64,000 bases of DNA from Bacteroidota bacterium (GCA_039028295.1 JBCCIJ010000023.1:1322-65321), one strand, 5' to 3'. Positions 8,571-64,000 are shown, counted from the stretch's first letter. Program-made: numbers and translations. The notes: a model not told the origin generated them from the letters alone.

Positions 8571-8580
8571 TGTATTAAAA

Positions 8581-9570: not shown

Positions 9571-9587
9571 AGGGGGTAGAATTAAAA

Positions 9588-10361: not shown

Positions 10362-10362
10362 A

Positions 10363-11280: not shown

Positions 11281-11282
11281 GG

Positions 11283-12062: not shown

Positions 12063-12069
12063 AGCTGTA

Positions 12070-16483: not shown

Positions 16484-16494
16484 AATGAACGGTG

Positions 16495-16502
16495 CAAAAA
16501 TA
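16495..16502 (-). promoter_or_regulatory. Bacteroidota sigma70 -7 box (TATTTTTG) for the hemA operon
   Basis: Reverse complement of caaaaata matches TAnnTTTG. Confidence 0.55.
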
Positions 16503-16641
16503 GGAGCTAACTTTAATAGAAAGTAACGCTTGCGGTATGATTTATATCGTTCGCTGTTAATTTTAACCGTAAATTGCGGTTTCACGGCTAAAAATAGCTA
16601 ATTTAGTATCATTCTAAACAACAAAACTCCATTTTTGAGCT

Positions 16642-17532: not shown

Positions 17533-17605
17533 TCAATGCGTAGAAGAAAATGTTACTATGACATAACTTTACCAACATTTTAAGAACCTTTTGACTCGTA
17601 CTCAC

Positions 17606-17613
17606 TATTTTTG
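17606..17613 (+). promoter_or_regulatory. -7 box (TATTTTTG) upstream of hemH
   Basis: Matches TAnnTTTG 20 nt before the ATG at 17633. Confidence 0.5.
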
Positions 17614-17632
17614 TTGTTCTCAAAAACCAACT

Positions 17633-26703: not shown

Positions 26704-27080
26704 TTCAGTGCAAAATTCAAAGTAAAAAATGGCAATTCCTTGAGTGCCGAATAGGCTTTGTTAGGAGCTACCGCATATAAATAGGGGAGAAACTTTTACT
26801 GCTTCAATTTACTAAAAAAACCACAACGGTATTAGAAATGACTAAAAGGTTTGTAAAAAGGGAAGAGCTGTGATTTTTTTCTTAACTTTAAAGAGCTAAA
26901 ATTAGTTATAAAACGAGAGGGTTAGCATTTTGAAATAGCAAATGACTCGCAAAACATACGCCAATAATTTTGTTTCCGTAATGTGGTCAGAAAGAAAATC
27001 TAACGTCAATATTTTAGTCCTTAAGAAATCCTTCCCCATACTTTATAAATATCACTTTTAAAATGTGAAAAACAACGGTT

Positions 27081-36336: not shown

Positions 36337-37602
36337 ATGAAAAAATTATATGTAATTCTAATAACGGCTTTGGTCGTAGTAACCAGCTGTGAAAAAAATG
36401 AATTGAATACAATAGAACTTTCTACAGAAGAAACTAAAGATGTATCACTGGTACGAAACCCTGGAACAACAGGTTACCCAAACGATGAAATGGTGGTTCA
36501 ATACGATCCGTTACTTAGCGAAGCAGAAAAACAACTTTTGAGAGATCAATATGGTGTCACCAGCTATAAGAAATGCACCTGTGCAGATCCAACGCTCGAA
36601 CTTTGGATGTTTACGTTAGATCGCGAAGGGAATTTGCCCGGAGGTTTGGATCTGGAAGAAACCGTTCTGGGAGCCAAAGAGGAAACGGACCTTGAAGGTG
36701 CAGAGATAAACCCAACTTTCCAGCATATGGGAGAAAAATTAAATGCTTCATTTGGAGTTGAAGATATGGGAGTGGCTACCTTAAATATGGTTCCTTCCAA
36801 TCAAAATGTGACCATAGCAGTATTAGACACCGGGGTAGATTATAACTATTTCGGCTTCGAAAACCCTTTTCTGTATAACAGTCAGGACGGACAGAATTCT
36901 TGCTTTGACAATGGAATGGAAGATGTATTTGGATGGGACTTTGTAAATCAGGATAACAACCCCTTCGATGATTACGGCCATGGAACGGTAATTACTAGTT
37001 TAATTTATAATAAGCTATCTGAAGAAGATGTCGATTTCCAAATATTACCTGTTAAGGCTTTCGATAAAAATGGAAAAGGAACCTATTTTGATATTTTATG
37101 TGGCTTTAGATACGCGGCAACTAAAGAGGATGTGGATATCATCAATATGAGTTTTGGTTGGTATCATAGCAATTATGAATTGTTACACCGTTTCGTCGAG
37201 CAATCTGAAGATAAGGTTATGTTGCTAAGTTCGGCAGGGAATAAACATCAAAGCAATGATCAAACACCGCATTACCCATCGTCTTATAATGTTTCTAATG
37301 GTCTTTCCATAGCTGCTTTGACAGACAATCCATTTAGTATTGAATTGGCCTGGTTTTCAAACTATGGGATTAATTCAGTAGACATAGCCGCCTTTGGGGA
37401 GGGGATTCCGTTCTATATTACACCGCTCGAATTTGTTGAGGTTGCGGGTACGTCTTATGCGAACGCTTTTGCCTCTGCCTTTGGGGGGCTTCATTTTGAA
37501 CCAGGACTAAGTCCGCAACAGTTGAAGGCTATTATGTTATCGAACACCATACAACACAGTAATTTGTCTACTATTAAGTACCAATCATATATTGACTATT
37601 AG
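36337..37602 (+). CDS. S8 subtilisin-like serine peptidase lipoprotein
   Basis: Lipobox TSC; triad VLDTG, DYGHGT, GTSYA; oxyanion-hole SAGN. Confidence 0.9.
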   Translation: MKKLYVILITALVVVTSCEKNELNTIELSTEETKDVSLVRNPGTTGYPNDEMVVQYDPLLSEAEKQLLRDQYGVTSYKKCTCADPTLELWMFTLDREGNLPGGLDLEETVLGAKEETDLEGAEINPTFQHMGEKLNASFGVEDMGVATLNMVPSNQNVTIAVLDTGVDYNYFGFENPFLYNSQDGQNSCFDNGMEDVFGWDFVNQDNNPFDDYGHGTVITSLIYNKLSEEDVDFQILPVKAFDKNGKGTYFDILCGFRYAATKEDVDIINMSFGWYHSNYELLHRFVEQSEDKVMLLSSAGNKHQSNDQTPHYPSSYNVSNGLSIAALTDNPFSIELAWFSNYGINSVDIAAFGEGIPFYITPLEFVEVAGTSYANAFASAFGGLHFEPGLSPQQLKAIMLSNTIQHSNLSTIKYQSYIDY

Positions 37603-37647
37603 TTTAGTTTGGATAATTAGGTTTAGGTACAATTATTTAAGCTAGCG

Positions 37648-37673
37648 GGGGAGGGATTTTTAAATCCTTCCCC
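37648..37673. other. Intergenic hairpin between the S8 and CHAT genes
   Basis: ggggagggattt-tt-aaatccttcccc. Confidence 0.5.
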
Positions 37674-37707
37674 TAAATAGTATCTTTAACCATAATCCGT
37701 TATTCTC

Positions 37708-40488
37708 ATGAGCGTTTTCAGAAACACATTATTCCTGTACTTACTTTTCTCAGGGTTTTGCGTTTATGCGCAGCCCGATCTGAAGGCGAAGTATGATGCT
37801 ATCATTTCTTCGGAAGTTGATAATGCAAGCAAGCTAAAATTGGTAGAATCCCTAATCAACGAAAGCAACACTTACGATCCAGGCGATCTGGCGAATGTCT
37901 ACTACGATTTTTCTAAGTGGAACTTTAATCGAAACAAAGATGAAAAACGAGCAAAGCATTATGCCAAAAAAGAATTTCTGCTAAGAACTACAAAACTGTC
38001 AGAAGATAAAGATCCCATTCAACGTAATCTTTATAATTTGGGTCTAATGTACCGATATTCCAAACCACCGGATTATGATAATGCCATAGCCTATTTCGAT
38101 ACCCTTATTTCCATTTCAAAAGGAGATGAAATTAGACTTGGAAATGCTTATCGGGTTCGAGGCGATATTTATGACGCCCTGGGAGATTTTCAAAGAGCAT
38201 TGGAAAACTATTCCTACTCTGAGAATATTTTCAAAGGGAGAGATAGACCAGACCTTCAATTAAAAACTTTGATCAATGTTTCTGGAACCTATGCGTATTT
38301 GAGTGATCAGAATTATTTGGATTCCTTTATGGAAAATAAAGAGAAAATTGAAGCATTGCAAAACATGACGATGTCCAATAAGCAAGCCGCTATGTTGCAA
38401 TTGAACACCGGAGCTATGTTCAATACTACTTCCAATTTTCAAATGGCTTATGGACCAACTAAAAAAGCCTTGGCTCTTTTTGAAGAGATTGGTGATTCGG
38501 TTAATATATTTAAAAGTTTGAGTCTTATTGGGGTGTTGCAGAATAAGGATGAACACTTTTCCGAAGCGTCCAAAACCTTTGCAAGTGCCATGAAGTTTGC
38601 CGGCGGTAATAGGTTGCTCGAAAGCTCGGTCGCCAATAATCTGGGGGATATGTATCTAGGCGCTGGCGATTATCAACAGGCACTCTCCCATTATAATGCC
38701 GCCATTCTGGTGGTTCTTGGAGATGAAAGTATGAAGTCAGCACTCCATTTGCCGGTATTTGAGGATATTAGTCTTTCGCCTTTTAAGAAACGAATTTTTG
38801 CATATTTGAACGACTTGGCCAATTGTTGGCTCCTATATTTTGAACATACAGGCGATACAGGGCATTTGCTTCAGGCAGAAAAAACAATTTCTCTGGCAGA
38901 CCAGGTAGTCGATGCGTTGTTTTTTGAAAGTCGGGAGGAAATATCAAAACTATCTTGGCGAGAAAAGGCATCGCAATTATACATCAAAGGAGTTACGGTT
39001 GCCTTTCGTTTAGAGAAACCAGAGGCGGCACTTTATTTTATGGAAAAGAATAAAGGATTGTTATTATTGGAGAATATAAATAATGTCAAAGCGAGGCAGG
39101 ATGCGAAGATACCAATAGCCACAGTTGAAAGAGAACATAAATTGCTAAATTCGATTAAAACATTACAACTATCTCTAGCCAAAAACAATATAAATAACAG
39201 CACTTCTTTGCAAAGGGATAGTCTAAAGAATCAAATATTTTCATTAAAAAGAGACTACAGTGTGTTCATCGATTCGCTGGAAACCAGTTACCCGTCCTAC
39301 GTTAAATTCAAGAAGGAATTGGAAATTGAATCGGTAGAAAGCATCCGACAGAAACTTGCTGAAAACGAACGGGTGGTTGCCTATGCCCTTGGCGATTCTT
39401 TGGGATATGCCTTGCTCTTGACCAGGGACAAGCTGGAACTTAAACAGCTGCCTATTCCTGTTGCTGAATTAAATATTGAGGTGGAAGTTTTTAGAGACTA
39501 TTTGCTAAAACCCTTTACAACAAAAGGAGATGCTTTAGAATTTCAATTGGCCTCCACGCAGTTGTTCGAATGGCTATTCCCCTTTGATAACTTCGAGCTA
39601 ATGATGGAGGAAGCCCGCCTCATAATTATCCCGGATGGAATGCTTCAATCCATTCCATTCGATGCTTTAACTTATAGCAGTGATCTCAATTTGTCGAATG
39701 CATATGTTCTATCCAAATGTGAGGTTCTCTATAAATATTCACTTTCGATCGGATCGCGAATAAATTTGCTTTTACCTACTAAGGGGAATAGTCCGGTTGG
39801 ATTTTTATTGAATCAATTCAGCAATGACTATGAAATTCCATTGTCAGGTTCATTGAAGGAGGCGGATGCTATTAAGCCTTTCTATGGCAAACATATTTTT
39901 AGTGACACTTTAGCTTCAAAGCAATCGTTTTTGGAACAATTTGACGTTAACTCTCTCATTCATATTTCCACGCATGGTGGGATTAGTGATAGTGGTCCTT
40001 GGCTGGCATTTTATGACGAACACTTACTTCTTGATGAATTATATTTTCTGAAGAATCAAAAAGAATTAGTTGTATTAAGCGCTTGCAAAACGTCGGCGGG
40101 TGAGTATAAAAAAGGAGAAGGAACGTTCAGCATTGCCAGAGGCTTTATCAAAGCTGGAGTTAAAAGCGTATTGTCTACATTATGGGATGTCAACGAAAAA
40201 GCGAGCTTCGAAATTATTTCAGCCTTTTACGAAAATATGGAAACAGGCGATCGTAAATCGGAGGCACTTAGAGACTCGAAGCTGGGATATTTACAACGGC
40301 ATCAAAACACCAGTGAGGCCTCACCTTATTATTGGAGCGGGTTTACTATTACAGGAGACAATGAACCCATCGACGCTTTTTCCAATAGTCGATGGGGTGG
40401 CATTGTTACTACACTGTTAATTGGTTTGACGGTACTGGCCGGATTCATGTTCTTCAGAAGGAAAAGGACCAAAGCACAGATTACCTAA
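37708..40488 (+). CDS. TPR + CHAT (caspase HetF-associated) protease with signal peptide and C-terminal TM
   Basis: TPR array; LIIIPDGMLQSIPFDAL, IHISTHG (His), LVVLSACKTS (Cys), LSTLWDV, SPYYWSGF; C-terminal TM plus RRKR. Confidence 0.92.
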   Translation: MSVFRNTLFLYLLFSGFCVYAQPDLKAKYDAIISSEVDNASKLKLVESLINESNTYDPGDLANVYYDFSKWNFNRNKDEKRAKHYAKKEFLLRTTKLSEDKDPIQRNLYNLGLMYRYSKPPDYDNAIAYFDTLISISKGDEIRLGNAYRVRGDIYDALGDFQRALENYSYSENIFKGRDRPDLQLKTLINVSGTYAYLSDQNYLDSFMENKEKIEALQNMTMSNKQAAMLQLNTGAMFNTTSNFQMAYGPTKKALALFEEIGDSVNIFKSLSLIGVLQNKDEHFSEASKTFASAMKFAGGNRLLESSVANNLGDMYLGAGDYQQALSHYNAAILVVLGDESMKSALHLPVFEDISLSPFKKRIFAYLNDLANCWLLYFEHTGDTGHLLQAEKTISLADQVVDALFFESREEISKLSWREKASQLYIKGVTVAFRLEKPEAALYFMEKNKGLLLLENINNVKARQDAKIPIATVEREHKLLNSIKTLQLSLAKNNINNSTSLQRDSLKNQIFSLKRDYSVFIDSLETSYPSYVKFKKELEIESVESIRQKLAENERVVAYALGDSLGYALLLTRDKLELKQLPIPVAELNIEVEVFRDYLLKPFTTKGDALEFQLASTQLFEWLFPFDNFELMMEEARLIIIPDGMLQSIPFDALTYSSDLNLSNAYVLSKCEVLYKYSLSIGSRINLLLPTKGNSPVGFLLNQFSNDYEIPLSGSLKEADAIKPFYGKHIFSDTLASKQSFLEQFDVNSLIHISTHGGISDSGPWLAFYDEHLLLDELYFLKNQKELVVLSACKTSAGEYKKGEGTFSIARGFIKAGVKSVLSTLWDVNEKASFEIISAFYENMETGDRKSEALRDSKLGYLQRHQNTSEASPYYWSGFTITGDNEPIDAFSNSRWGGIVTTLLIGLTVLAGFMFFRRKRTKAQIT

Positions 40489-40848
40489 AACCAATAGGTT
40501 CCTTTTTAGCCGTTGTTTGGCCCTATAAAGTCCTGCAACTTTCCCGGCAACACCTGCCAGGAACACCAGGATCAAAATTACCGGTAGCACTGCCTTATTT
40601 ATTTCCGAAGTATCCCTTAGTATAAATAGGTAAGCCAGACCTAAAAAACCAGCACTTATCATGGCAAGAGCCCCACTCGAACACCCACAATCAAAAAGAT
40701 CTCTTTCTAGTCTGTGTTCCCATTTCTTGGCTTCCGTTTTGCCAAGAATTTTATGGAAATGCTCATCCAATTGAATATGTTCAAAATGCTCATTTTTAGC
40801 CCTACCAAGTTGCAACAGATCGTCGTATGTTTTGACTACGTACTCCAT
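40417..40848 (-). CDS. Small two-TM hypothetical protein with a CGC motif
   Basis: ORF 3 nt downstream of the CxxW gene; FDCGCSSGA followed by two hydrophobic helices. Confidence 0.6.
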   Translation of the reverse strand: MEYVVKTYDDLLQLGRAKNEHFEHIQLDEHFHKILGKTEAKKWEHRLERDLFDCGCSSGALAMISAGFLGLAYLFILRDTSEINKAVLPVILILVFLAGVAGKVAGLYRAKQRLKRNLLVLGNLCFGPFPSEEHESGQYRQTN

Positions 40849-40851
40849 GAT

Positions 40852-41853
40852 CTATCGCCACCAGCATAGCATTATCAACTTCAATATAAAGAACCAGATC
40901 GCACATACGATGGTTACGATCCATGCCCATAGGTAGCAAAAGAAAGTAACTATGGTAACCCAAAGAGTGCAAAGTCGCTCGACTATCCACGCCCAGGCGA
41001 TACAGGTGGTAAAGGTAATCCATGTCCAGGCGTCGCAAATCCAGGTAGTTACATAGGTCCATCCAATGCAAATCCATCTAAGCGTCCAATGCCATGAGGA
41101 ACAGGTTCTTCGTGTAGAGGAACTCCAACTAGCGCACCTACGTTGTCTGGTTATGCGGTTGGCCACACAAGTGAGAATCCTTTTAATAAACCAGTCTCTG
41201 CAAGCTTTTGATTCGCGTCTTTGCCATCCGAGACAAGTTAGTTTCCAATTGGCGATCCATCTCAGACAATCCCTTTCCCAAAGGAAAACCCATCTACAAT
41301 ATAAATGACGCCAGTATTCGAACCAGGGTTGAAATAACCATAAAACAAAGTATAAGAAACTAATAATAGAAAAAAGAATCCAGAAAAATAGGGTCCATCC
41401 GGAGGTGCCTATCGCTCCCAAGATCTCACCTATCAAAAGCGCGATGCTTCCCAGCACAAAAATTACAAAGGTAATTACCGTAGGTGGGGGAGGTGCCACG
41501 GGCTTCTTTTCCCACCAGGCCATGCTCATAAGAACGAGTCCGTATGCTAGGAAAAAGACCGCTTCGCCACCTAATAACCATTGAGCTGCAGGAGACAAAA
41601 AGTTGGAAATCGTTTGTTGCAATCCTACTTCTTGATAGGTTTGTACAATGGCTTGTAAATGTTCTTGAAGCCCCGAATAAACAATATACCCTACTACTAA
41701 CGCCCATAAGGTTAGAGCAATTCGCTTGTAGTATTTTTTATAATTTGAACTTTCTATCCACGAATTATCTGTAAATGGAATTTCATTTGGATCTGTTTGT
41801 GACGTTTCGTCTTGCTGTGAATTAGGTTCTAATTCGTTGTCATTTTCAGCCAT
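40852..41853 (-). CDS. Membrane protein with a C-terminal array of 11-residue CxxW repeats
   Basis: About 4 N-terminal TM helices; 14 Cys in the last ~150 aa, 11 consecutive spacings of exactly 11 aa. Confidence 0.8.
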   Translation of the reverse strand: MAENDNELEPNSQQDETSQTDPNEIPFTDNSWIESSNYKKYYKRIALTLWALVVGYIVYSGLQEHLQAIVQTYQEVGLQQTISNFLSPAAQWLLGGEAVFFLAYGLVLMSMAWWEKKPVAPPPPTVITFVIFVLGSIALLIGEILGAIGTSGWTLFFWILFSIISFLYFVLWLFQPWFEYWRHLYCRWVFLWERDCLRWIANWKLTCLGWQRRESKACRDWFIKRILTCVANRITRQRRCASWSSSTRRTCSSWHWTLRWICIGWTYVTTWICDAWTWITFTTCIAWAWIVERLCTLWVTIVTFFCYLWAWIVTIVCAIWFFILKLIMLCWWR

Positions 41854-42057
41854 AATCTTGAAATTTATTGGTTGTTCAGATAAAAATAATCAACTATAGT
41901 CGTTCGTTTTAGGGGTAATTACCTGTTTTTTAGCTATTTAAAAACCCCTTTTTTAAAACGGTTTAACCGTAATTCATCATCAGACTTTCGGATTTTGTGC
42001 AACTATATACAAGCGGTGACGGGGAGGAATAATGCGTCAGATGTTAGATATTTTTTA

Positions 42058-43170
42058 TTAAAAGAAGGGGGGTATTCCCAGACAGGACGCCAGAGCGTTT
42101 GCCGCATCCTTAAAGGCATCCAATCTTCTAATTATTATGATAACACCATGACTAGCCGGACTTCCTAAGGCTTCCAGGACGGCATCTTTAGCAGCTCTGA
42201 ACGCTATTAGTTCTGTAGAGCATCTCATTCCGTTACGAGGATGATTTTCAATGTGATTTTCGATCGCTTCGCTCACAGTTTCTACCGCGTCAACGAGATC
42301 GGCGATAGCGGCCATTAATATTCTATAGGCAATGAATGCCGCTACCGCAATTAGAGCGATGATGGCTAAAATTAATAGAATGGGCCCCAAGGGAATAACT
42401 ATGGGTGCCAATGCCGGAAGTGCTGCGGCTTGAGGGATCCTTTGAATAGAGTTCTCTGTAGCACTGGTTCTGATCTCCCGGGTATCGGCAACCTCTTGGT
42501 TTACCTCTGGACTTTGTTGAATGGTATGGGTAAGCTCATGTGCGATGAGTTTTTTTCCACTCTGGGACGAAGTATTGTATTCGTTCTTATTAAAGTAAAT
42601 ATCAGATCCATTGGCAAACGCCCTTGCTCCCAATTGTTCATTCATTTGCACTGCCGTGGCATCATTATGAACGCGTACATTCTCAAAACTTGCACCAAAA
42701 CCTGATTCCATTTCAGCTTTAGTGTTTTTTTCTAACGGCTGTCCCTTCCCCTTTGTACTTTTTAGTTGACTTTCGAGCTCTAGATTATTTTTATCTTCAT
42801 TTTCTTTAGGGATGGCACCGTTACTTTGAATGGCGGGTTTCCGCATAATAGCTGTCCCATCTTGTTGGATTTCTTTTTTGCTTATCTGCTCTTCCTGTTG
42901 GCATTGAGGACATTCGGTTTTTTCTGAAGTAGCCTCTTCTTTCTCCTTGGCTTTTTCGACCATGCTGTTGGCCAGTGCTTTGGCCTTACTGTCATGTTTG
43001 CTTTTGGGTTGATCTTCTTTTAATTTAGGTTGAATTGTAGTTGAAGGAAAGAATGAGGCGCTCTCATTTTTTGATAACAACCATTGGTTTTCTTCTGCTT
43101 TTTTTTGGAAGAAAAGATGGGCTGGTGATGTACCTGGAGTACTGTAGCTGCTTTTTGCGAATGCTCTCAT
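42058..43170 (-). CDS. DUF4157 (eCIS core domain) protein with a hydrophobic segment and small C-terminal domain
   Basis: GQPL..MESGFGASFENVRVHND..ARAFANGSDIYF..LIAHELTHTIQQ; IQPKL, IMRK and IQR motifs. Confidence 0.88.
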   Translation of the reverse strand: MRAFAKSSYSTPGTSPAHLFFQKKAEENQWLLSKNESASFFPSTTIQPKLKEDQPKSKHDSKAKALANSMVEKAKEKEEATSEKTECPQCQQEEQISKKEIQQDGTAIMRKPAIQSNGAIPKENEDKNNLELESQLKSTKGKGQPLEKNTKAEMESGFGASFENVRVHNDATAVQMNEQLGARAFANGSDIYFNKNEYNTSSQSGKKLIAHELTHTIQQSPEVNQEVADTREIRTSATENSIQRIPQAAALPALAPIVIPLGPILLILAIIALIAVAAFIAYRILMAAIADLVDAVETVSEAIENHIENHPRNGMRCSTELIAFRAAKDAVLEALGSPASHGVIIIIRRLDAFKDAANALASCLGIPPFF

Positions 43171-55307: not shown

Positions 55308-57330
55308 ATTCAGATAGTAACATGATGAGATGGGCTGCACTCCAGCTAAAATTTTGAGCGTGTAGCCCTTTTCCTGTAAGTGGATGATAGTTTTCTCTAA
55401 TGGCCTTTCCTTTACCTAATAAACCTTCAGCGCCTTCTAAAATTTGGGTTGTTGCTTTATCGGCTTCAGAATGGAATCCGTAATTACGTAAGCTTTTAAC
55501 TCCAAAATACGATTGATCCAACCAATTTGGCCCTCTCCAATATCCCTTGAGAGGGTCAAATTTTGGATGATCCGCACTCATCGTTTGAAAGGGAACTTTG
55601 GTGAAAAATTTAGCTGGATTCATCATTTTGTTTTTTACAGCTTCTGCTTGTTCCTGGCTCGCCGCATTAGCCCAAAGTGCGGTCCAACCTTCACTGCCCT
55701 CGCCTTTTATAAAAGATGTTCCTTTCAGATTAGTGTCGTAAAACCAGCCATCTTTTTCGTCATAGAATTGCTTTTGAATTTTGGCCTTCAGTTCCTGTGC
55801 TTCTTTTGTAAAAGTGGTAACATCGGCCTCAATTTGTAATTTTTCCGCTAACGTTATTAAGTATAGTTTTTCGGCATAGAGGTAGGCATTCAGATCGACA
55901 CTTTCTTGATCCAAGGAATAGGCTCCTTCAGCACTTTTTAAAATTTTGGAATTGTCAAAACGGATCGCGTTGTCCATACCACTTTCCCATTTCGCAGCTA
56001 TAAGTGTTCCGTCGGTCGAACCATACTCACAAAGACCATCTTTGTCATAATCCCGATAGTTGTACCACCATTGATGGTACTTTTTTAATTTGGGATAGAA
56101 TTCTTGGATGAATTCAATGTCCTGATCTTTTTCATAAATTTTGACCACTGCCCAAGCCGATAATGGAGGTTTGGTATCTCGATAGTTGTGATTTTCAATT
56201 AAAGTATCCCGAAACACACAATCTACAATAAAACCATCTTCCTTTTGGAAATCGAACATTAACTTCATCTGTTCTTTAGCCAGATTGGTGTTGTAATGAG
56301 ATAACCCAACGGCATGTTTCCAGGAGTCCCAGGACCAGAAACCATTAAACCACTTGTAATGATAGCTAGGAAATAAGCCTTCATGTTTAATTTCACCAGC
56401 TGGAATGCGCCAGTTGTTTTGAAGCGTTAAATGGGCTTTTATTAGGGCTTCAGCATATTTCTCTTCCTGAAATTGAGGCTTTCGATGGTTTATTAATGCG
56501 GTTAATTGAACGTCTTTTTCATTTTTTCTGACATGTAAAATTGAATCGAAAATTGAGTTTTCAATTAATTTTTGCTCTTCTTCCCAAGAATATTCTGGGA
56601 AAATAAAAGTTTGAGAGACTATATATTCTTTAGACGCATTGGCTTTTAGGAAAATAGTTTCAAAATTAGCTTTGTAATAACCAGTTGCCGTTTGTATAGT
56701 AACTGATTCCTCTGGAAATTTTATATACCCCTTGGCGGTGGATTTTTCAGAAGAAAATAGAATCGTTTCATCTTGGGCGGTGTTAGTAATACCTATATTA
56801 AACAACTCACCACTTACCGAAGGATGTAATGTAATGTCCCGCGAAGACACGTTTGTAACAGACATTTTTTGCAGGGTTGTGTGTCCGGACAGATAAAAAA
56901 CTTCTTGTTTTACACGAAGATTTTCGTTTTCATAGATCTGTTCAAGATGACTGGAAAAACCATGTTGTGATAGCATTGAGGTTTGCCAATCAATAAGCTT
57001 AGTATTGTTTTCCCCCCGTAACGTTAAATTTACAAGAGATTTACTGCTCCAAATTCCGTTTTGTTCGGTCATTAAAAATGGGCCAGAGAAACCCGAAATG
57101 TTCGAAGTGGAATCTGGAAGGCTATAGGCGAACCAAGCGCCCTGATCCGAGAACATTAAACCCGATTTGTCTGTAGGCGTTTTTGGAGTAACTCTGTAAT
57201 CCAGAATGTTTTTACTTCCGTTTAAATAGGTAAAAGAATTTGACTTGGTGTTGGTCGCACCTTTTTTAGAACATCCAATGAGAAGGGCAAAAAAGAAGCA
57301 GCATAAATAAATTAAGCGAATATTGATCAT
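55306..57330 (-). CDS. GH63/MGH1-like (YgjK-type) glycoside hydrolase lipoprotein
   Basis: Lipobox LIGC; FNGFWSWDSWK, TKPPL, WESGMDN, ESVDLN, YWRGPNW, ENYHP..NFSWSAA. Confidence 0.85.
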   Translation of the reverse strand: MINIRLIYLCCFFFALLIGCSKKGATNTKSNSFTYLNGSKNILDYRVTPKTPTDKSGLMFSDQGAWFAYSLPDSTSNISGFSGPFLMTEQNGIWSSKSLVNLTLRGENNTKLIDWQTSMLSQHGFSSHLEQIYENENLRVKQEVFYLSGHTTLQKMSVTNVSSRDITLHPSVSGELFNIGITNTAQDETILFSSEKSTAKGYIKFPEESVTIQTATGYYKANFETIFLKANASKEYIVSQTFIFPEYSWEEEQKLIENSIFDSILHVRKNEKDVQLTALINHRKPQFQEEKYAEALIKAHLTLQNNWRIPAGEIKHEGLFPSYHYKWFNGFWSWDSWKHAVGLSHYNTNLAKEQMKLMFDFQKEDGFIVDCVFRDTLIENHNYRDTKPPLSAWAVVKIYEKDQDIEFIQEFYPKLKKYHQWWYNYRDYDKDGLCEYGSTDGTLIAAKWESGMDNAIRFDNSKILKSAEGAYSLDQESVDLNAYLYAEKLYLITLAEKLQIEADVTTFTKEAQELKAKIQKQFYDEKDGWFYDTNLKGTSFIKGEGSEGWTALWANAASQEQAEAVKNKMMNPAKFFTKVPFQTMSADHPKFDPLKGYWRGPNWLDQSYFGVKSLRNYGFHSEADKATTQILEGAEGLLGKGKAIRENYHPLTGKGLHAQNFSWSAAHLIMLLSE

Positions 57331-57784
57331 TGTATTTATCCCTATTTTTCGAAATACGTTATAGCTCCTAATCCTTGAGGCATGTACATCTGGTTTCCCA
57401 ATGATATACTACGCCATTTTTCACAAATATAATTAAAAGCTCATACCTCCTTCGATTACAAGTATCACATTAAATGCGTCAAATTGCTTTGGATAAACCT
57501 GTCGAAAATGGCTTCCACAATGCTTAAAGAATTCAAAAGTAGCATAAGGCACGAATAAATAAGCAAGAGTGTCAAAATTCAACCCACCGTAATATTGTGA
57601 AAGTTGTCATTATCCAAGTAACATATTTCTATAAGATAAGTGCTAAAGGCTGTTCTGGAGTTTCTAATGCAATAACGACTCATATTTATCTAATGGTAAA
57701 TTTTTCACAAAACTTTCATCTTTTCCCGTTGGACTCGGGTCTAATAGCGGCGTATATTTTTAGCTATAAACCCCTATTTGTCTA

Positions 57785-58666
57785 TTGATTTACAGCGCTG
57801 GAAGATGCTCGATACGACTAAATAAAATTCAGAAAATGGAAAAAATTTACCGATATCGAGATGCTAGCTTACGATTATCTCATTATATAAAGAACTTTTG
57901 GACCATTGATAGAACTATCCAGACAACCATTAGCCGCGAAAAGATCATTCCCGATGGCTATTCGGAATTAATTTTTCATTCAGGAGATCTATTTAGGTCC
58001 AATTTTGGTGGATCTTGGGTGCCCAGTGATTTATACCTTCTTGCCGGTCAAATAAGAAAACCATATTTCATTGAAAACATCGGTAAATCCAAAATGTTCG
58101 GGATTAAGTTTCAACCTTGGGCGCTAACCGAACTATTCAACCTCGATATGTCGAAATTTGCCCATAAACGAGTGGAAATACCACCTGAACTGAGGGAAGT
58201 ACTTGAACCGGTTATAAGCATTGCCATTCAGGAGTTGTCGTTTGATCAGCAAGTGAATGAAATGGAAAACTGGTTCTCCAAATTTACTTCTAACAGAAAG
58301 CTGAATACATCCAGTGGGAGAGCATCCATAAAGCTAATTCTCGAAAATAAAGGCAACATAAGTTTAAAACAAGTCCGGAATGAAGTTGGTTGGAGCGAAA
58401 GGAGTTTGGAGCGCTATTTTAATAAATATGTTGGATTAACACCAAAACTATACCTTAGGATCATTCGATTCTCAACTGTTTTTGAATTGATAGAAAAAGG
58501 ACAAAACGATTGGGCAGATGTTCTTTTTCAAACGGGGTTTTATGACCAATCACATTTCATAAAGAACTTCAAGGAATTTGCCGGAGACTACCCCACAAAG
58601 TACAAGTTTACTGAAAACAGCCTGTCCAATAACTTTTTAAGAAAAAAGAATATCAGTTTTCTGTAA
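57785..58666 (+). CDS. AraC family regulator with DUF6597-like N-terminus (start may be later)
   Basis: IIPDGYSELIF, GIKFQPWA, SERSLERYF..GLTPK, GFYDQSHFIKNFKEFAG. Confidence 0.88.
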   Translation: MIYSAGRCSIRLNKIQKMEKIYRYRDASLRLSHYIKNFWTIDRTIQTTISREKIIPDGYSELIFHSGDLFRSNFGGSWVPSDLYLLAGQIRKPYFIENIGKSKMFGIKFQPWALTELFNLDMSKFAHKRVEIPPELREVLEPVISIAIQELSFDQQVNEMENWFSKFTSNRKLNTSSGRASIKLILENKGNISLKQVRNEVGWSERSLERYFNKYVGLTPKLYLRIIRFSTVFELIEKGQNDWADVLFQTGFYDQSHFIKNFKEFAGDYPTKYKFTENSLSNNFLRKKNISFL

Positions 58667-58726
58667 ACCGTTAAACCTGTTGGATCAATCTCCAAAGTGG
58701 GTAAGAAAATGTCGGTTGGAAAGTTT

Positions 58727-60007
58727 TTAGTTTGAAGCCTCAAAGTATTCCTTTTTAATTTTACTGAATAAGTAAGAGAGAAAACTCCTTTCCTCTAATA
58801 TCATTGACAGTTTCCCCGTCATCCCTTTTTGAACATAGGAGTGAAGCTTTCCATAGTCCTCGATCTCAACCTCAAATGGAAGTTCACCATCTGGATTTGG
58901 CGTTAGGCTTAGGTTTCTTACTTCTCCAGTGAGAAACCCCCAATCGTAATGTGGATAAGGAGTTAGTTTTAACTTAACCTCAACACTATCTCTAACCCTT
59001 CCAATTAGTGATGCCGGTATGGAGGCCACTGCTTTATAATATCTTGGGCCACTATATATCTTGAGCAATGGACTGTTTCTAGGGGTTGTTTTACCAGTGG
59101 GCCCTTTATAAGAGATCACTCCTTTTTTTTCGGCTTTAAGCACGATGCTGTTTCCGAGAATATCGAAGGCGCCGTAATGTTTTTTAATGAGATCCAGTAA
59201 ATAGTTTGCTTGATTTTTAAGAGACTGACTCTGGTTTGCAAAGGTTAATTCCAATTCTGAAGTAAGACTTGTTGACCGTTTTTTTTGTTCGTTCAAATTG
59301 GTTCTGGCAAACGCCAGATTGGCTATTTCCTTTTCATATTCGCTTTTGTTTGTAAGGTATTGGTTGAGGCCGGTATTGTAGTCACGTTCACTTTTTTCAA
59401 AATCGAATAGGGAGATGACCCCTTTTTCATAGAGTACTTTATTACGTTCGTAATCTGTGCTCAATAATTTAAAGTTATTTTCCAGTTCATTTATTTTATG
59501 AACTTTTGTCGTTTCAAGTTGCTCAATATTGAAATTTAAGGCGCTAACCTTATTGTCCAGCTCCTTGTTTACTCTATACCGTTGCTCCTTTCGAGCCAGA
59601 AGGACTAGAGAGTCTTGAGAACCCCGCATATCCAAATTAACCATTAAAGCTTTATAATCGGCCAGGAGTTGATTCAATCGAAGCCCTGAAATAATTGCTA
59701 TGGGGGTGCCATATTCTACACTATCGCCTACTTCTACAAAAAGAGAATCTATAATAATATTTTCATCGATCGTAATAATCTGCTCACTATTGAATTTATC
59801 CTCTATAACAAAACCCAATTCAAGTTGCCTGGGGATTTTAATGAATGATCCCAGTAGAATGAAAAGCAATATAATTGCCCCTCCGTAGTAAACCCATGTT
59901 CGTTTTATGTCATCCCGAACGTCGTCCAAAGGTACGTCCTCTTCAAAGAAAATATCTTCATACTGATGCGGCTTTAACCCTTCATATGCTTGTTTTTCCG
60001 TTTCCAT
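58727..60007 (-). CDS. HlyD-family membrane fusion protein
   Basis: Single N-terminal TM, VEVGDSVEYGTPI lipoyl-like motif, long coiled coil, YPHYDWGFLTGEV, KGMTG. Confidence 0.9.
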   Translation of the reverse strand: METEKQAYEGLKPHQYEDIFFEEDVPLDDVRDDIKRTWVYYGGAIILLFILLGSFIKIPRQLELGFVIEDKFNSEQIITIDENIIIDSLFVEVGDSVEYGTPIAIISGLRLNQLLADYKALMVNLDMRGSQDSLVLLARKEQRYRVNKELDNKVSALNFNIEQLETTKVHKINELENNFKLLSTDYERNKVLYEKGVISLFDFEKSERDYNTGLNQYLTNKSEYEKEIANLAFARTNLNEQKKRSTSLTSELELTFANQSQSLKNQANYLLDLIKKHYGAFDILGNSIVLKAEKKGVISYKGPTGKTTPRNSPLLKIYSGPRYYKAVASIPASLIGRVRDSVEVKLKLTPYPHYDWGFLTGEVRNLSLTPNPDGELPFEVEIEDYGKLHSYVQKGMTGKLSMILEERSFLSYLFSKIKKEYFEASN

Positions 60008-60008
60008 T

Positions 60009-62210
60009 TTATATATCTAAATACGTTTGCATATACTTATGATAGAGCCCCTTTCTTTCCATAAGTTTCGCGTGACTACCTTCCTCCTTTATGGTTCCAC
60101 GATCCATAACATAAATGGTATCTACTGTTGAGAGCGTGTTCATTCTGTGAGCAATGGTTATGATGGTTTTGTCCTTGAAGTGCGTATATAAATTGTTCAT
60201 GATTCCCTTTTCTGTTTGCACATCGAGTGCACTACTGGCTTCATCCAAAATAATTACTTCAGGATTAGCTAGAAACAATCGGGCGAAACCAATTTTAAGT
60301 TTCTCTCCACCCGAAAGATTGATCCCGTTATCACCAATACGCATATTATAACCTAGATAATTGGCTTTTATAAACTCGTGACAGTCCGCCAGTTTAGACG
60401 CCTCAATTATTTGCTCCATGTTCGCTTCGAGATTACCGTATTGAATGTTCTCCTTAATACTTGCATCGAACAAAAATATTTCTTGCGGGAAGAGATATAT
60501 CTTTTGGCGAAGTTCCGGAAGATAGATGTCTTTAAGGGATATACCGTCAATCAAGATGTGTCCTTGGTAGTCTACATACAGACCGGCTAACAGCTTTACC
60601 AATGTGGACTTGCCAGATCCATTGCGGCCCACAATCCCAATGTGCGCCCCTCTTTTAATTTTCATGCTTAGGTTGCTAATCACGTTCTTAGTTACCTCAG
60701 CATCATAGGAAAAATCTACATTTTTAAACTCAATCGTTTCAGCTTCAACTTGCTTATGGGCATTTAAAATATCCCTTGCTTCCTGATCCTGAATCAGGAC
60801 ATCATTAAGCCTGGTAAAGGTCACGGACAATTCGGTTATCATGAACCAAAGAGAAGAGGCGTTGTTCAACTTGTTCATGGCTAGGGTAAATATGCTTATA
60901 AATGCTACATATTGACCTATACTTATCTTTCCTTCAATGGCCGTATATGCACCTATCCAGTACACCAATATGTGACTTAAATAATAGAAAGCTTTTAGCA
61001 AAGTGCCTAACTTGATGTACATTTTTTCAGCGCTTTGCACTTTATTCAGGGCCTTCTTATACTTATTTTTCCAACTCCATATTTTGAGTTTTTCTATGCC
61101 GAGGAGTTTGATGGTTTGTATTCCCAATAAAGTATCCAGGAAGGACCCCATGGTTTTCAGATTTTCATAAAATATCTTAGTTTCCATTTGATTCAAAACT
61201 GGCGTAAATCGAATGATCATACCAATAAACAAGACCACAAAAATTAAAGCAATACCAGCTAAGGCTCCATTGTAAAAGAAGAGTACAACAACATATATAA
61301 ATACAAATAGTAAATCGACGAAGGCCTGTAATATAGAGGGAGACATGAGTCTTCTAATTTTCAGATTTTCCTGGAAACGTTGGATGAAATCTTCTCGTTT
61401 ATTCATATCAAAGAACGTTTGTGTGAGATGAATAAAATGGTTAAAGAACTTGCTGAAGAAATCTAACTCCAGCCTTACTTTAAGCTTGACGAGTAACAAA
61501 TCTCTCGTGTAATTGAGCATGACCTGGGAGAAAAAAATTATAATGAGCCCAATGAGAATGGCAAAAAGGAGTTTACGGTCATTGTATACCAATACCTTAT
61601 CTATAATTCCTTGAGCGAAAAAAGGAAGCGCTAATCCCAATAGTTGTAGCAGCAAACTAGCGACCAGAATTTCTGCAATTACTGCTTTAAATGGTTTTAA
61701 CAATGAATAATAAAAGTGTCTTTTTAAATTTTTCTTCCTCTCGCGATAGCGCTCAACAAGATCCATTACGTCCGGATTCTGAAAAACGTCTGGGGTGGGC
61801 TCCATCGTCATGATAATACCATTCCATTTTGTTTTGAAATCCTCCAAACCCAATTTTTCTTTTCCATAGGAAGGATCCGCTATCCAGATATGGGTTTTGC
61901 TCAGCTTGTAAATGACAACAAAATGATTGCCTTGATAATGTGCAATACAGGGAAGTGTGATCTGTTCAAAGTGATCAAACCCATCGAGCTTATAACCATC
62001 AGATTCAAATCCAAATTGGGTGGCGATCTCACTCAAGGCATACAAGTTAGTACCTTGTGTACTTACCTTTCCTAACTGAGCCAATAGCGCTTTGACATTG
62101 TATAGGCCATAAAACCGAAAGATCATGGCTAGGGAAGTGGTTCCACACTCCATCATGCTGGTTTGTTTGATGAACAAAAATTTGCTCTTCTTTCTATATT
62201 TTTTGTTCAC
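60009..62210 (-). CDS. C39 peptidase-containing ABC transporter (PCAT); probable GTG start at 62210, not 62345
   Basis: C39 motifs QTSMMECG, IAHYQGNH, IADP. TM domain. Walker A GRNGSGKST, signature LSGGE, IILDEASSALD, IAHR. The stretch from 62345 to 62211 overlaps a peptide gene and a terminator. Confidence 0.92.
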   Translation of the reverse strand: MNKKYRKKSKFLFIKQTSMMECGTTSLAMIFRFYGLYNVKALLAQLGKVSTQGTNLYALSEIATQFGFESDGYKLDGFDHFEQITLPCIAHYQGNHFVVIYKLSKTHIWIADPSYGKEKLGLEDFKTKWNGIIMTMEPTPDVFQNPDVMDLVERYRERKKNLKRHFYYSLLKPFKAVIAEILVASLLLQLLGLALPFFAQGIIDKVLVYNDRKLLFAILIGLIIIFFSQVMLNYTRDLLLVKLKVRLELDFFSKFFNHFIHLTQTFFDMNKREDFIQRFQENLKIRRLMSPSILQAFVDLLFVFIYVVVLFFYNGALAGIALIFVVLFIGMIIRFTPVLNQMETKIFYENLKTMGSFLDTLLGIQTIKLLGIEKLKIWSWKNKYKKALNKVQSAEKMYIKLGTLLKAFYYLSHILVYWIGAYTAIEGKISIGQYVAFISIFTLAMNKLNNASSLWFMITELSVTFTRLNDVLIQDQEARDILNAHKQVEAETIEFKNVDFSYDAEVTKNVISNLSMKIKRGAHIGIVGRNGSGKSTLVKLLAGLYVDYQGHILIDGISLKDIYLPELRQKIYLFPQEIFLFDASIKENIQYGNLEANMEQIIEASKLADCHEFIKANYLGYNMRIGDNGINLSGGEKLKIGFARLFLANPEVIILDEASSALDVQTEKGIMNNLYTHFKDKTIITIAHRMNTLSTVDTIYVMDRGTIKEEGSHAKLMERKGLYHKYMQTYLDI

Positions 62211-62258
62211 TGCACCAGGGTTTATTCCTTTCCTGTCTGGATGGTAAAAAGGGAGTGT

Positions 62259-62294
62259 AAAAAAAGGCCTCCAAATAAATGTTAGCCCTTTATT
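62259..62294 (-). terminator. Terminator-like hairpin after peptide gene 1
   Basis: Minus strand aataaagggctaacatttatttggaggccttttttt; identical to 62488-62524 except for one base. Confidence 0.65.
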
Positions 62295-62316
62295 AAAAAA
62301 ATAAGTCCTAAGTAAA

Positions 62317-62385
62317 TTAGTCGAACCATGGGTTTGATCCTCCATGGATTGACTGAGATTCTGTTTTCTCTAATTTTACCATCAT
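62317..62385 (-). CDS. Double-glycine precursor 1: MMVKLEKTESQSIHGG|SNPWFD
   Basis: Hand translation; leader fits L(-12)/E(-8)/I(-4)/GG; three paralogues nearby; adjacent to the PCAT. Confidence 0.85.
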   Translation of the reverse strand: MMVKLEKTESQSIHGGSNPWFD

Positions 62386-62418
62386 CAAATTTTTAAGGTT
62401 ATTAATAATTTAATCAAT

Positions 62419-62427
62419 TCAAATAAA
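62419..62427 (-). promoter_or_regulatory. TTTATTTGA motif upstream of peptide 1 (other copies at 62641-62649, 62781-62789, 63975-63983)
   Basis: Same 9-mer; 29 nt from the ATG in three copies and 34 nt in this one. Confidence 0.6.
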
Positions 62428-62487
62428 CAACTCTCAAGGCTTAAATAATTGTATAAATCCGACAGATACATTACTTTGAACGGCCAT

Positions 62488-62524
62488 AAAAAAAGGCCTC
62501 CAAATAAATGTTAGCCCTTTTATT
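62488..62524 (-). terminator. Terminator-like hairpin after peptide gene 2
   Basis: Near-exact duplicate of 62259-62294. Confidence 0.65.
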
Positions 62525-62546
62525 GAAAGTAGGTGTTCTTTTTTAA

Positions 62547-62612
62547 TTATGCAATCCACGGGCTCGCTCCTCCATTGATGGATTGGGCTTCATTTTTCTT
62601 TAGTTTTATCAT
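62547..62612 (-). CDS. Double-glycine precursor 2: MIKLKKNEAQSINGG|ASPWIA
   Basis: Hand translation atg ata aaa cta aag aaa aat gaa gcc caa tcc atc aat gga gga gcg agc ccg tgg att gca taa. Confidence 0.87.
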   Translation of the reverse strand: MIKLKKNEAQSINGGASPWIA

Positions 62613-62686
62613 TACCAAGTTTTTTTAAGTTAGTTTTTATTCAAATAAATAGCTCTTGCCCAAACAAAGAATGCCTGCTTGGTAAT

Positions 62687-62752
62687 TTAGTCGAGCCACG
62701 GATGGGCTCCTCCATTGATGGATTGAGCTTCATTTTTCTCTAGTTTTACCAT
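62687..62752 (-). CDS. Double-glycine precursor 3: MVKLEKNEAQSINGG|AHPWLD
   Basis: Hand translation atg gta aaa cta gag aaa aat gaa gct caa tcc atc aat gga gga gcc cat ccg tgg ctc gac taa. Confidence 0.87.
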   Translation of the reverse strand: MVKLEKNEAQSINGGAHPWLD

Positions 62753-62833
62753 TATCAAGTTTTTTAAGATTAATATTGAATCAAATAAACAATTTTTACC
62801 AATTAAATAATTGTAAGAAACCGTCTTTGATGG

Positions 62834-63670
62834 TTATCTGTAAGAGGCAACGAGCTCTCTATTGGAAGAAATGATTTGAGCATTATTATGATCTTCAGTA
62901 CCCGTGGGAGTTCCCCAGATAGGGGGACCGCCTATAATTTGATTAAATTCTGAATAAAGTACCTCTGGATTGGAATAATTTGGAATCACATTTGGCAAAA
63001 GAGCTCCTCCTCCTATCATAATAGTTCGTACGGAAACGCCAGGACTTACAAAGAAATCATAACCCTGTTCATGACGACCTCCAAAGTTGTGCCCCGTTTC
63101 ATGGGCAAAATACCATGTTGGATTCTCCATGGAAATGACCGAAAATCCGGTACTGGCATCCACTGGAAAGCTAGCGGCACCTCCCGGAGGATATTTGAGC
63201 AGTGTAACGAGATCTGCTGCATGATTGTCCCTCATGCGATGAACTTCATCAAGTATTCCGTCATTTGGATTTTGGAGCGGAGCTAAATCAACAAACCCTC
63301 CTTGCCCCATATAGTCTACTTCTGCCGAATGCACCAGGTTAAGATTAAGAGGGATTTCACTATTAGCGTATGCGAGGTTTGTCCAAGATACTATTTGATT
63401 CAGTAGTAGCTCCATGGCTTGAGTACCCCCAGCCGAATCCTTCGCTATGGAAGTGTAAACGATCATAATATCTACTTGGGTCTTTTCAATAGGATTCTTA
63501 GCAGGGCCATCTGTTGAAATGAGGCTGGCGTTTTTCACAAGAACTTCGTCTTCGTATAATTCGTTTTTTGCACAACCATGGTTCATCATTATTGATACTA
63601 GTAGCAGTCCTAATAATACTGGCCGCTTTAATGTATTTAAAAGGATATGTTCTTCAATATAATTTTTCAT
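62834..63670 (-). CDS. Metzincin (M12B/reprolysin-like) zinc metallopeptidase, probable lipoprotein
   Basis: HETGHNFGGRH (HExxHxxGxxH), Met-turn VRTIM, VDIMIVYT, YSNP; hydrophobic N-terminus ending HGC. Confidence 0.85.
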   Translation of the reverse strand: MKNYIEEHILLNTLKRPVLLGLLLVSIMMNHGCAKNELYEDEVLVKNASLISTDGPAKNPIEKTQVDIMIVYTSIAKDSAGGTQAMELLLNQIVSWTNLAYANSEIPLNLNLVHSAEVDYMGQGGFVDLAPLQNPNDGILDEVHRMRDNHAADLVTLLKYPPGGAASFPVDASTGFSVISMENPTWYFAHETGHNFGGRHEQGYDFFVSPGVSVRTIMIGGGALLPNVIPNYSNPEVLYSEFNQIIGGPPIWGTPTGTEDHNNAQIISSNRELVASYR

Positions 63671-63788
63671 AGTTTCCGCGCATTTATGTGGTCATCAACC
63701 AATTTTAAAGTTTAGTTGCTCTATAAGGAGTTGTAGTGTCTTTCATAGTTGTGATTTCTTTTTATTCAAATAATGGAAATAGGGCAAA

Positions 63789-63822
63789 AAAAAAGGCACA
63801 CAAATGAATGATGGCCTTTTTT
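63789..63822. terminator. Terminator-like hairpin after peptide gene 4
   Basis: aaaaaaggc..gcctttttt inverted repeat with a loop resembling the other two (caaatgaatg versus caaataaatg). Confidence 0.7.
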
Positions 63823-63880
63823 AAACAAAGAGCATAATGTTGTCTTTGTATTTACATGATTGAAGGAACTAACCTCCTCG

Positions 63881-63946
63881 TTACTCAAGCCATGGGCTCG
63901 CTCCTCCATTGATAGATTGAGCTTCAGTCTTCTTTAGTTTTACCAT
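63881..63946 (-). CDS. Double-glycine precursor 4: MVKLKKTEAQSINGG|ASPWLE
   Basis: Hand translation atg gta aaa cta aag aag act gaa gct caa tct atc aat gga gga gcg agc cca tgg ctt gag taa. Confidence 0.87.
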   Translation of the reverse strand: MVKLKKTEAQSINGGASPWLE

Positions 63947-64000
63947 GAAAATTAAATTAAATATTAATACTAAATCAAATAAACAACTCTTGATTCATAA

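Follow-up and report, generated by a model that had tools for sequence, protein, structure and literature searches.

A stretch of 64,000 nucleotides from a Bacteroidota bacterium (GCA_039028295.1, JBCCIJ010000023.1:1322-65321), hereafter the window, with positions counted from its first letter, carries near its end four very short genes, pep1–pep4, beside the genes of an ATP-binding cassette (ABC) transporter with a peptidase domain (PCAT) and a HlyD-family adaptor. The four open reading frames (ORFs) look like real, separately promoted genes for minimal double-glycine (GG) precursors, each composed of a GG leader and a predicted core of six residues, xxPWxx. It is quite probable that the products are PCAT-processed, exported hexapeptides; for the whole statement, including a signalling role, a probability of about 0.35 seems appropriate. 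The pep locus is a minimal-core GG-leader/PCAT system extending to a clade of Bacteroidota transporters, and the xxPWxx family is so far unique to one uncultured flavobacterium.

Four minimal precursor genes and their exporter

All four genes lie on the minus strand, and translation agreed in every residue with the first-pass annotation of this DNA, which had proposed them. The product of pep1 (62317..62385; 22 amino acids (aa), or 21 aa if read from the second ATG at 62382) combines the leader MMVKLEKTESQSIHGG with the core SNPWFD. The other three products are 21 aa long: pep2 (62547..62612) joins MIKLKKNEAQSINGG to ASPWIA, pep3 (62687..62752) joins MVKLEKNEAQSINGG to AHPWLD, and pep4 (63881..63946) joins MVKLKKTEAQSINGG to ASPWLE. 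Their common form is M(M)[VI]KL[EK]K[TN]E[SA]QSI[HN]GG, followed by [SA][NSH]PW[FIL][DAE] and a stop. The leader comprises 15-16 residues, with Gly-Gly at positions 14-15 (15-16 in pep1) and the core directly after. Leu(-12), Glu(-8), Ile(-4) and Gly-Gly(-2/-1) are present in 4/4 leaders; the consensus of GG leaders is given as Leu(-12)-x3-Glu(-8)-Leu(-7) with a hydrophobic residue at -4 (PMC6363468).

The evidence that these are genes comes from codon-pattern scans and from the comparison of the paralogues. The codon pattern E-x-Q-x-I-x-G-G-x-x-P-W-x-x-stop was matched four times in the 64-kb window and never in 100 dinucleotide shuffles; a wider pattern (M-x-K-x-x-K, five arbitrary residues, a codon with T in the second position, then x-GG-xx-PW-xx-stop) gave the same outcome, 4 vs 0. 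The frame, length, GG, Pro-Trp (PW) and stop were said in the first-pass annotation to be kept amid synonymous variation, and this claim is well supported: the pooled proportion of synonymous differences (pS) is 0.47 vs 0.13 for nonsynonymous ones (pN; pN/pS ~0.27), and pairwise dN/dS ranges within 0.16-0.31. In the six core codons, the synonymous sites are near saturation (pS 0.84); even so, Pro-Trp persists together with the frame and the stop. Synonymous variety is exemplified by Ser(-5), encoded by TCA, TCC or TCT, and by Pro, encoded by CCA or CCG. The antisense ORFs over the pep genes are of unequal length and start, with none at pep3, and hence are not conserved. On these patterns, the minus-strand frame of pep1–4 is taken as translated and under purifying selection, the comparison comprising only 21 codons and small numbers. 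The genes are shorter than the length limits of gene callers and unannotated: no gene call includes them, and they are missing from a collection of 15 billion proteins.

Each gene is preceded by the same 16-nt minus-strand motif, AGAGTTGTTTATTTGA, which is private to the upstream DNA of pep1–4 (the whole window was scanned with up to three mismatches allowed). It is located at 62419..62434, 33 nt before the ATG of pep1; at 62641..62656 and 62781..62796, each time with two mismatches, 28 nt before pep2 and pep3, respectively; and, as an exact copy, at 63975..63990, 28 nt before pep4. The canonical -7 box of Bacteroidota is TAnnTTTG; the motif is unlike it and is therefore called here a candidate promoter or operator.

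Hairpins with U tracts were predicted on the same strand at three of the genes: between pep1 and the PCAT start (62258..62295; U7, -12.3 kcal/mol, z -1.8), after pep2 (62490..62521; U7, near-identical to the former, z -2.2) and after pep4 (63789..63822; U9, z -2.3). Their folding energies span -12 to about -15 kcal/mol, with z about -2. These hairpins fail the strict terminator consensus on its loop-length rule; the one after pep1 is a candidate leaky terminator or attenuator. The arrangement points to small transcripts, each initiated separately, possibly with read-through from pep1 over 106 nt into the transporter genes. A sigma-70 promoter scan was uninformative (18 promoter-like sites vs 16.4 expected), and a scan with Rfam returned a single sub-threshold chance match. 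The possibility that the ORFs encode attenuation leader peptides was considered and rejected, as there are four independent copies with an upstream motif of their own, three of them far from the PCAT start.

Directly downstream on the same strand reside the PCAT gene (60009..62210, minus strand), encoding a protein of 733 aa from a GTG start, and the gene of a HlyD-family membrane-fusion (periplasmic adaptor) protein of 426 aa (58727..60007, minus strand). The GTG at 62210 is most likely the true start, giving 733 aa as in the database entry; a 778-aa ORF running over pep1 was dismissed as an artefact of the ORF finder caused by an upstream in-frame ATG. The PCAT displays the Pfam domains Peptidase_C39 (E 4e-32), ABC_membrane and ABC_tran, i.e., the C39 peptidase, transmembrane and nucleotide-binding parts, and the next gene product matches HlyD_3. 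In an alignment of the N-terminal domain with PCAT1 (PDB 4RY2) and ComA, the residues Gln, Cys, His and Asp are all retained (IKQTSMMECG, NHFVVIY, IADP), so the C39 motifs are intact, as had been noted, and the domain looks active. Such domains bind an amphipathic leader, cut after Gly-Gly and tolerate diverse P' sequences, and in diderms the PCAT, an adaptor and an outer-membrane factor together make up a type I system (PMC6363468). No gene for an outer-membrane factor was found nearby.

Mini-precursors at related transporter loci

Nine distinct loci were fetched around PCATs 53-70% identical to that of the window. A hidden Markov model (HMM) built from the four window leaders was too narrow for the related leaders and was replaced by an a-priori textbook regular expression (Met, 1-5 residues, hydrophobic at -12, hydrophobic at -4, x-GG) with a shuffle control. 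The nine loci contained 16 ORFs no longer than 35 aa that match this expression, compared with 1.15 +/- 1.06 (max 5) in 200 order-2 Markov shuffles, and 16/16 were situated at most 3 kb from the PCAT-HlyD pair, with cores of 5-15 residues. Overall, GG-leader ORFs of at most 35 aa were found within 3 kb of the pair at 7/9 related loci. Those long enough for gene calling are unnamed or annotated as ‘hypothetical protein’. Some leaders at the related loci score 19.7-23.6 bits with the NCBIfam model NF047798, ‘leader_Chryseo, bacteriocin-like protein’ (cut-off 23.5), i.e., near or at the cut-off, and therefore this type of leader has already been modelled by curators.

Locus L011 harbors five ORFs divergent from the PCAT, with the predicted cores YGLDEDLS, PIGGTHEK, ANKKSSRSNVSLPVD, DWDGFKKAC and PGGYGLDEDLSTLC; one divergent ORF each is present at L013 (PRMKFKEKFDEEMD) and L015 (KFKEKFDEEM), and L022 carries three upstream ORFs on the same strand as the PCAT (SSEIYAW, GSEIYAW and GVCSASSTVCGG). 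At L013 and L015, HlyD is followed by a PfkB kinase and then by an M1 aminopeptidase secreted by the type IX secretion system (T9SS; 14536-16830 and 14538-16832, respectively); a secreted peptidase near mini GG-peptides could be another case of the kind seen in the window (see below), or a coincidence.

The metagenome-assembled genome (MAG) of Ekhidna sp. (GCA_054681515.1; L018, 2929-9473) encodes, just upstream of the PCAT and HlyD, five mini-ORFs with the cores GQIINI, PLWADGYPKP, GTYLWSG, PRASPYF and GSYLWSG, and among them a 357-aa cytochrome P450 and a DUF4440 protein; PLWADGYPKP, behind a 23-residue leader, came from a looser screen and is outside the count of 16. This locus is a candidate for a leader-dependent, Tyr-x-Trp cross-linked mini-RiPP (a peptide made by ribosomes and modified after translation), and, in view of its P450 and Y-x-W cores, some members of the class are therefore probably modified. 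In an orthologous pair of high-G+C loci, L020 and L021, the leaders MKKLTKAEMKKVAGG (9724-9786) and MQKLTKNEMKKVAGG (9781-9846) precede the basic cores of 5-6 residues, KIVRH and KVVRRN, respectively. The two mini-ORFs occupy equivalent sites, immediately downstream of HlyD and on the strand opposite to it, in contigs of one European Nucleotide Archive sample representing two genomes, and by this comparison a tiny core is conserved across two genomes.

At the remaining two loci no mini-precursor was recovered. The closest PCAT (70%), that of Reichenbachiella faecimaris (L010), has no visible peptide gene, as only 438 bp upstream of the PCAT are present in the public contig; downstream, a PAS protein, two histidine kinases and a LytTR response regulator are encoded (4886-12556). 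At L017, from a genome of 69% G+C, no mini GG-ORF was found, and an IS605-family OrfB/TnpB-like gene (8196-9368) separates the PCAT from HlyD.

The cores are similar between paralogues of one genome and unrelated across genomes, as expected for specificity-determining signals. The first-pass annotation had named a lack of the ORFs from homologous loci as a sign against its proposal. In the strict sense, this conservation fails, since the xxPW core occurs in no homologous locus; the part that stood concerns GG mini-ORFs as such, found at the seven loci described. Judging from these loci, the class of mini GG-ORFs is conserved with this Bacteroidota PCAT clade, though the PW type is not. The strict PW codon pattern yielded seven matches in 185,579 species-representative genomes, all by chance and none within a short leader-bearing ORF, while the leader-relaxed pattern gave one chance match in JGI metagenomes (low-complexity DNA) and none in IMG/VR. 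The recurrence of mini GG-peptides across the PCAT clade had been missed in the first-pass annotation, as had a metalloprotease gene embedded in the pep array.

The embedded protease, the flanks and the host

The latter gene (62834..63670, minus strand) sits between pep4 and pep3 and encodes a metzincin of 278 aa (HETGHNFGGRH) combining the HExxHxxGxxH zinc motif with the adamalysin/reprolysin catalytic fold, as is characteristic of M12B-like proteases. It matches Reprolysin_3, _4 and _5 of Pfam; its best NCBIfam match, Mep72, is well under the cut-off. The N-terminus resembles a signal peptide, PVLLGLLLVSIMMNHGC, ending in Cys and followed by the acidic stretch AKNELYEDE, and because of this arrangement the protein is a probable surface lipoprotein. 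Its AlphaFold model, built with 32 distant relatives, reached a mean predicted local distance difference test (pLDDT) score of 80.2, with ~95 in the catalytic domain and low values at residues 1-59. In Foldseek, the model matched first CpaA of Acinetobacter (6O38) and then dozens of catalytic domains of snake-venom, ADAM and ADAMTS proteins with probability 1.0, including entries whose titles name complexes with endogenous QSW (4Q1L) and pENW (1KUG) peptides. HMMER retrieved thousands of distant relatives, mostly larger multidomain proteins; no close orthologue emerged from tblastn on species-representative genome contigs or from a shared-word search, and no such protease is encoded at any related mini-peptide locus fetched.

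All ORFs of at least 150 aa in the window were checked by Pfam scans or precomputed Pfam marks. Among them, there was no RiPP tailoring enzyme, prenyltransferase, histidine kinase, LytTR regulator or immunity-like protein. Specifically, the 64-kb window lacks genes for radical-SAM, P450, YcaO, Lan, MNIO, ATP-grasp and prenyltransferase proteins; the proteins scanned include no ComQ-like polyprenyl synthase and no histidine kinase or response regulator of the ComP/ComA type. The histidine kinase and LytTR response regulator of a Gram-positive GG-pheromone circuit (ComDE/BlpHR type) are absent from the window as well, and no ORF for a small, immunity-like membrane protein is present beside the pep genes. 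These negative results cover 58 kb on the PCAT side, the other side comprising at most 1,364 bp of the source contig.

Public short-read contigs from the sole run bearing the locus, SRR22824298, break in or beside the pep genes (62262-62520, 63908) and stop at ~63,990, and the word depth approximately doubles across the repeated terminator segment. The repeats probably explain the end of the source contig just past pep4, and further copies may exist.

The host is a member of Bacteroidota, as had been assumed. T9SS C-terminal sorting domains are present in several window proteins, and the HemA sequence shares 87-91% identity with that of uncultured Flavobacteriaceae MAGs and ~80% with those of Rasiella, Altibacter, Patiriisocius and Aequorivita; therefore, the host is regarded as an uncultured marine flavobacterium of the family Flavobacteriaceae. 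The nearest PCAT, that of R. faecimaris, belongs to a different order, and the G+C content is 37% in the last 8 kb (56001-64000) vs 39-42% in the rest of the window, which suggests that the locus is accessory and maybe horizontally acquired.

Convergent with HlyD, on the plus strand, lies the gene of an AraC-family regulator (57785..58666; DUF6597 and HTH_18 by Pfam), a neighbour only: its candidacy as a conserved partner was rejected, as it has only the HTH domain in common with an AraC protein near L022. Farther away, a conflict- or defence-like gene set (24013-31453 and 36337-43170) encodes a TIR-NB-ARC-TPR protein (24013-26703, minus strand), a TIR protein (27081-28598) with an nSTAND1 NTPase directly next to it (28598-31453), an S8 subtilase (36337-37602) beside a TPR-CHAT protein (37708-40488) and an eCIS_core-domain protein (42058-43170). 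An ordinary cluster of haem biosynthesis (hemB, coproporphyrinogen oxidase, hemE, hemD, hemC, hemA, ferrochelatase), with an AraC-family regulator in its middle, occupies 8581-18673.

Possible roles of the hexapeptides

In the proposed scheme, the leaders of pep1–4 would be recognised by the C39 domain of the neighbouring PCAT, which would cleave them behind Gly-Gly. SNPWFD, ASPWIA, AHPWLD and ASPWLE would then leave the cell through the PCAT together with the HlyD adaptor and an outer-membrane factor whose gene lies elsewhere. Calculated [M+H]+ values of these four peptides in unmodified form are 765.320, 644.340, 738.357 and 702.346, respectively. Outside the cell, the hexapeptides, unmodified or modified on the invariant Trp, would act as diffusible, pheromone-like signals, which the embedded adamalysin-fold lipoprotein might trim or destroy at the cell surface. 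Translation, cleavage after Gly-Gly, export and, above all, the signalling role are what we infer from the sequence. The signal reading is preferred because the peptides are small, hydrophilic and species-specific, and have no immunity or tailoring gene in view.

In many respects, the locus conforms to known double-glycine/PCAT systems (class II bacteriocins, microcins, competence-stimulating peptide (CSP), BlpC, lanthipeptides, bacteroidetocins, Bacteroidales GG-RiPPs): it features a GG leader of ~15 residues, an adjacent PCAT with Gln/Cys/His/Asp, a HlyD adaptor and several precursor paralogues. It differs from them in its cores of six residues (5-15 at the related loci), compared with the much longer cores described, and in the readable flank without an immunity gene, tailoring enzyme or two-component system. 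To our knowledge, the shortest described core of a GG substrate is that of CSP, about 17 residues. GG-leader/PCAT precursors of Bacteroidales are documented for RiPP-like clusters and bacteroidetocins, all with long cores (PMC10352776, PMC6671954). The prediction that the products are 6-mers, far shorter than the cores in the GG-peptide papers found, was upheld; no description of 5-7-residue cores behind GG leaders was found in open-access text, and a system of this architecture was likewise encountered neither in open-access full text nor in NCBIfam or Pfam scans.

Within diderms, the nearest functional parallels are EbfG1-4/PteB of Synechococcus elongatus and HetC of Nostoc, PCAT systems with a non-bacteriocin role. 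In Synechococcus, four small GG-motif proteins are tied to biofilm development (PMC4997328), and for the PCAT HetC, whose substrate is unknown, export of a regulatory peptide has been suspected (PMC10986499). Unlike the pep products, however, those of EbfG are small proteins rather than hexapeptides, and no GG peptide is encoded beside hetC.

Several observations weigh against the signalling scheme as a whole. The leaders possess Ser or Ala at -7, where the consensus has Leu. The best curated HMM for the leaders, TIGR03949, scores 14.3-16.9 bits against a cut-off of 21.5 (E 0.004-0.03, leader-driven); pep1 matches no curated HMM and pep2–4 remain under the curated cut-offs, although for queries of 21 residues a sub-cut-off score is weak negative evidence, and the hits, weak as they are, also speak in favour of GG precursors. 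Searches of further genomes, metagenomes and viral contigs turned up no PW peptides, i.e., there is no conservation at the level of orthologues. Only one indexed sequencing run, a marine metagenome, holds the locus, and none of the indexed runs holding it is an RNA-seq run. No receptor gene is evident within the window, and the related loci do not share the adjacent AraC regulator. Four slightly different signals without cognate receptors are atypical for quorum sensing, and a demonstration of peptide signalling in Bacteroidota was not found in open-access text. Neither ‘pheromone’ nor ‘RiPP’, the two identities offered in the first-pass annotation, is demonstrated, because the readable 58 kb contain no tailoring enzyme and no receptor such as a histidine kinase, LytTR or TPR regulator, and the xxPW core is not conserved in homologous loci.

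In format, the cores match ComX of Bacillus (ComQXPA), a peptide of 6-10 residues at the C-terminal end of its precursor whose invariant Trp is the third or fourth residue counted from the C-terminus, e.g., GIFWEQ (PMC5331326). The pep products likewise end in a core of hexapeptide size with Trp third from the C-terminus in 4/4, the rest being polymorphic. At the same time, the ComX precursors are 53-58 aa long, without a GG leader, are not exported by a PCAT and belong to a Firmicutes system, in which ComQ (an isoprenyl transferase), ComP and ComA adjoin ComX, none of which is seen at the pep locus. Hence, the likeness is a resemblance, not membership. A more ambitious version of the signal reading, which we consider doubtful, holds that the peptides are pheromones in the ComX format, serving quorum sensing or kin recognition, with Trp plain or lipid-modified, secreted via PCAT/HlyD and shaped or quenched by the adamalysin-like protease, and that they represent the tip of a widespread, unannotated class of 5-15-residue GG peptides in Bacteroidota.

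A minimal RiPP is a possible, if tentative, alternative: prior to leader removal by the PCAT, an enzyme whose gene lies past base 64000 or at another site would modify Trp or Pro-Trp, e.g., by ComQ-like or cyanobactin-like prenylation, by cross-linking with a P450 or radical-SAM enzyme, or by halogenation. An invariant PW in an otherwise variable core and the ComX format of the peptides fit this idea, and several near-identical precursors per locus are typical of RiPP clusters. Moreover, the source contig, 65,364 bp in length, reaches no farther than 1.4 kb beyond pep4, and assemblies break at these repeats. Among the related loci, the Ekhidna one couples P450 and DUF4440 genes to the Y-x-W cores GTYLWSG and GSYLWSG, and the cores SSEIYAW and GSEIYAW of L022 are in line with the same idea; still, no tailoring gene was found in the 64-kb window, 6/7 related mini-peptide loci have no tailoring enzyme nearby, and a leader of 15 residues leaves scant space for a second recognition element. 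The comparison with biarylitides and other P450-cross-linked mini-RiPPs, whose aromatic cores are also very small (cf. Y-x-W with a P450 in Ekhidna), is limited in that biarylitide precursors are leaderless and 5 aa long, whereas the window has no P450 and the pep cores have one invariant aromatic residue. The RiPP and signalling readings would overlap if the product were ComX-like.

The location of the metzincin gene inside the pep array raises the less likely option that the peptides are ligands of the protease, which would cut the hexapeptides at the surface (e.g., at the Trp/hydrophobic bond), the xxPW products or the hexapeptides themselves inhibiting or regulating it. Adamalysins favour Leu, Ile or Phe at P1', and the residues after Trp are F, I, L and L, suited to such a site. 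For Mep72, the top match in NCBIfam, an inhibitor is encoded alongside. The model's matches to reprolysin and ADAM domains, which include the QSW and pENW complexes, recall the tripeptide inhibitors of snake-venom reprolysins (pENW, pEKW, QSW), also short Trp peptides accompanying an adamalysin-fold protease. Unlike those eukaryotic tripeptides, which start with pyroglutamate or Gln and terminate in Trp, the encoded pep cores have no N-terminal Gln or Glu and extend two residues beyond Trp. The link to the protease is one of adjacency, which may be due to chance; the related mini-peptide loci have no such protease, and there is no close orthologue with which co-occurrence could be followed.

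An antagonistic function, in the form of mini-microcins or mini-bacteriocins, appears improbable. The GG leader, PCAT and HlyD constitute the classical export route of bacteriocins and microcins, by which Bacteroidota export bacteroidetocins (PMC6671954, PMC10352776), and the leader matches belong to bacteriocin families. On the other hand, six hydrophilic residues are too few for the known pore-forming or receptor-hijacking bacteriocins, and the locus has no gene for an immunity-like small membrane protein; thus, pep1–4 possess neither the core length nor the cognate immunity gene that characterize class II bacteriocins and microcins. Equally improbable is that the ORFs are non-functional, i.e., decayed remnants of the 5' parts of longer bacteriocin genes, or repeats that are not translated. 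Their absence from gene calls and protein collections and the lack of conservation outside this genome are compatible with decay, but the stop position is kept in four copies despite a core pS of 0.84 and a pN/pS of about 0.3, the upstream motif is conserved while the antisense ORFs are not, and equally short GG-ORFs, including the orthologous KIVRH/KVVRRN pair, accompany related PCATs.

PCATs with GG-leader substrates are textbook knowledge for bacteriocins and Gram-positive pheromones. The use of PCATs for small peptide signals in diderms has been suggested since early in silico screens, with evidence still lacking according to a paper of 2024 (PMC10986499). The pep locus offers concrete, cheaply synthesized candidate molecules that bear on exported peptide signals in Bacteroidota, together with a mining rule, i.e., a six-frame scan within 3 kb around PCATs of this clade, which numbers 464 proteins at E <= 1e-50. 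If modified, the pep products would be among the smallest leader-dependent RiPPs. If they are signals, they would open up peptide communication in a phylum ecologically dominant in the sea and the gut, and, should the ComX-format pheromone reading be true, this would be the first peptide-pheromone circuit in Bacteroidota.

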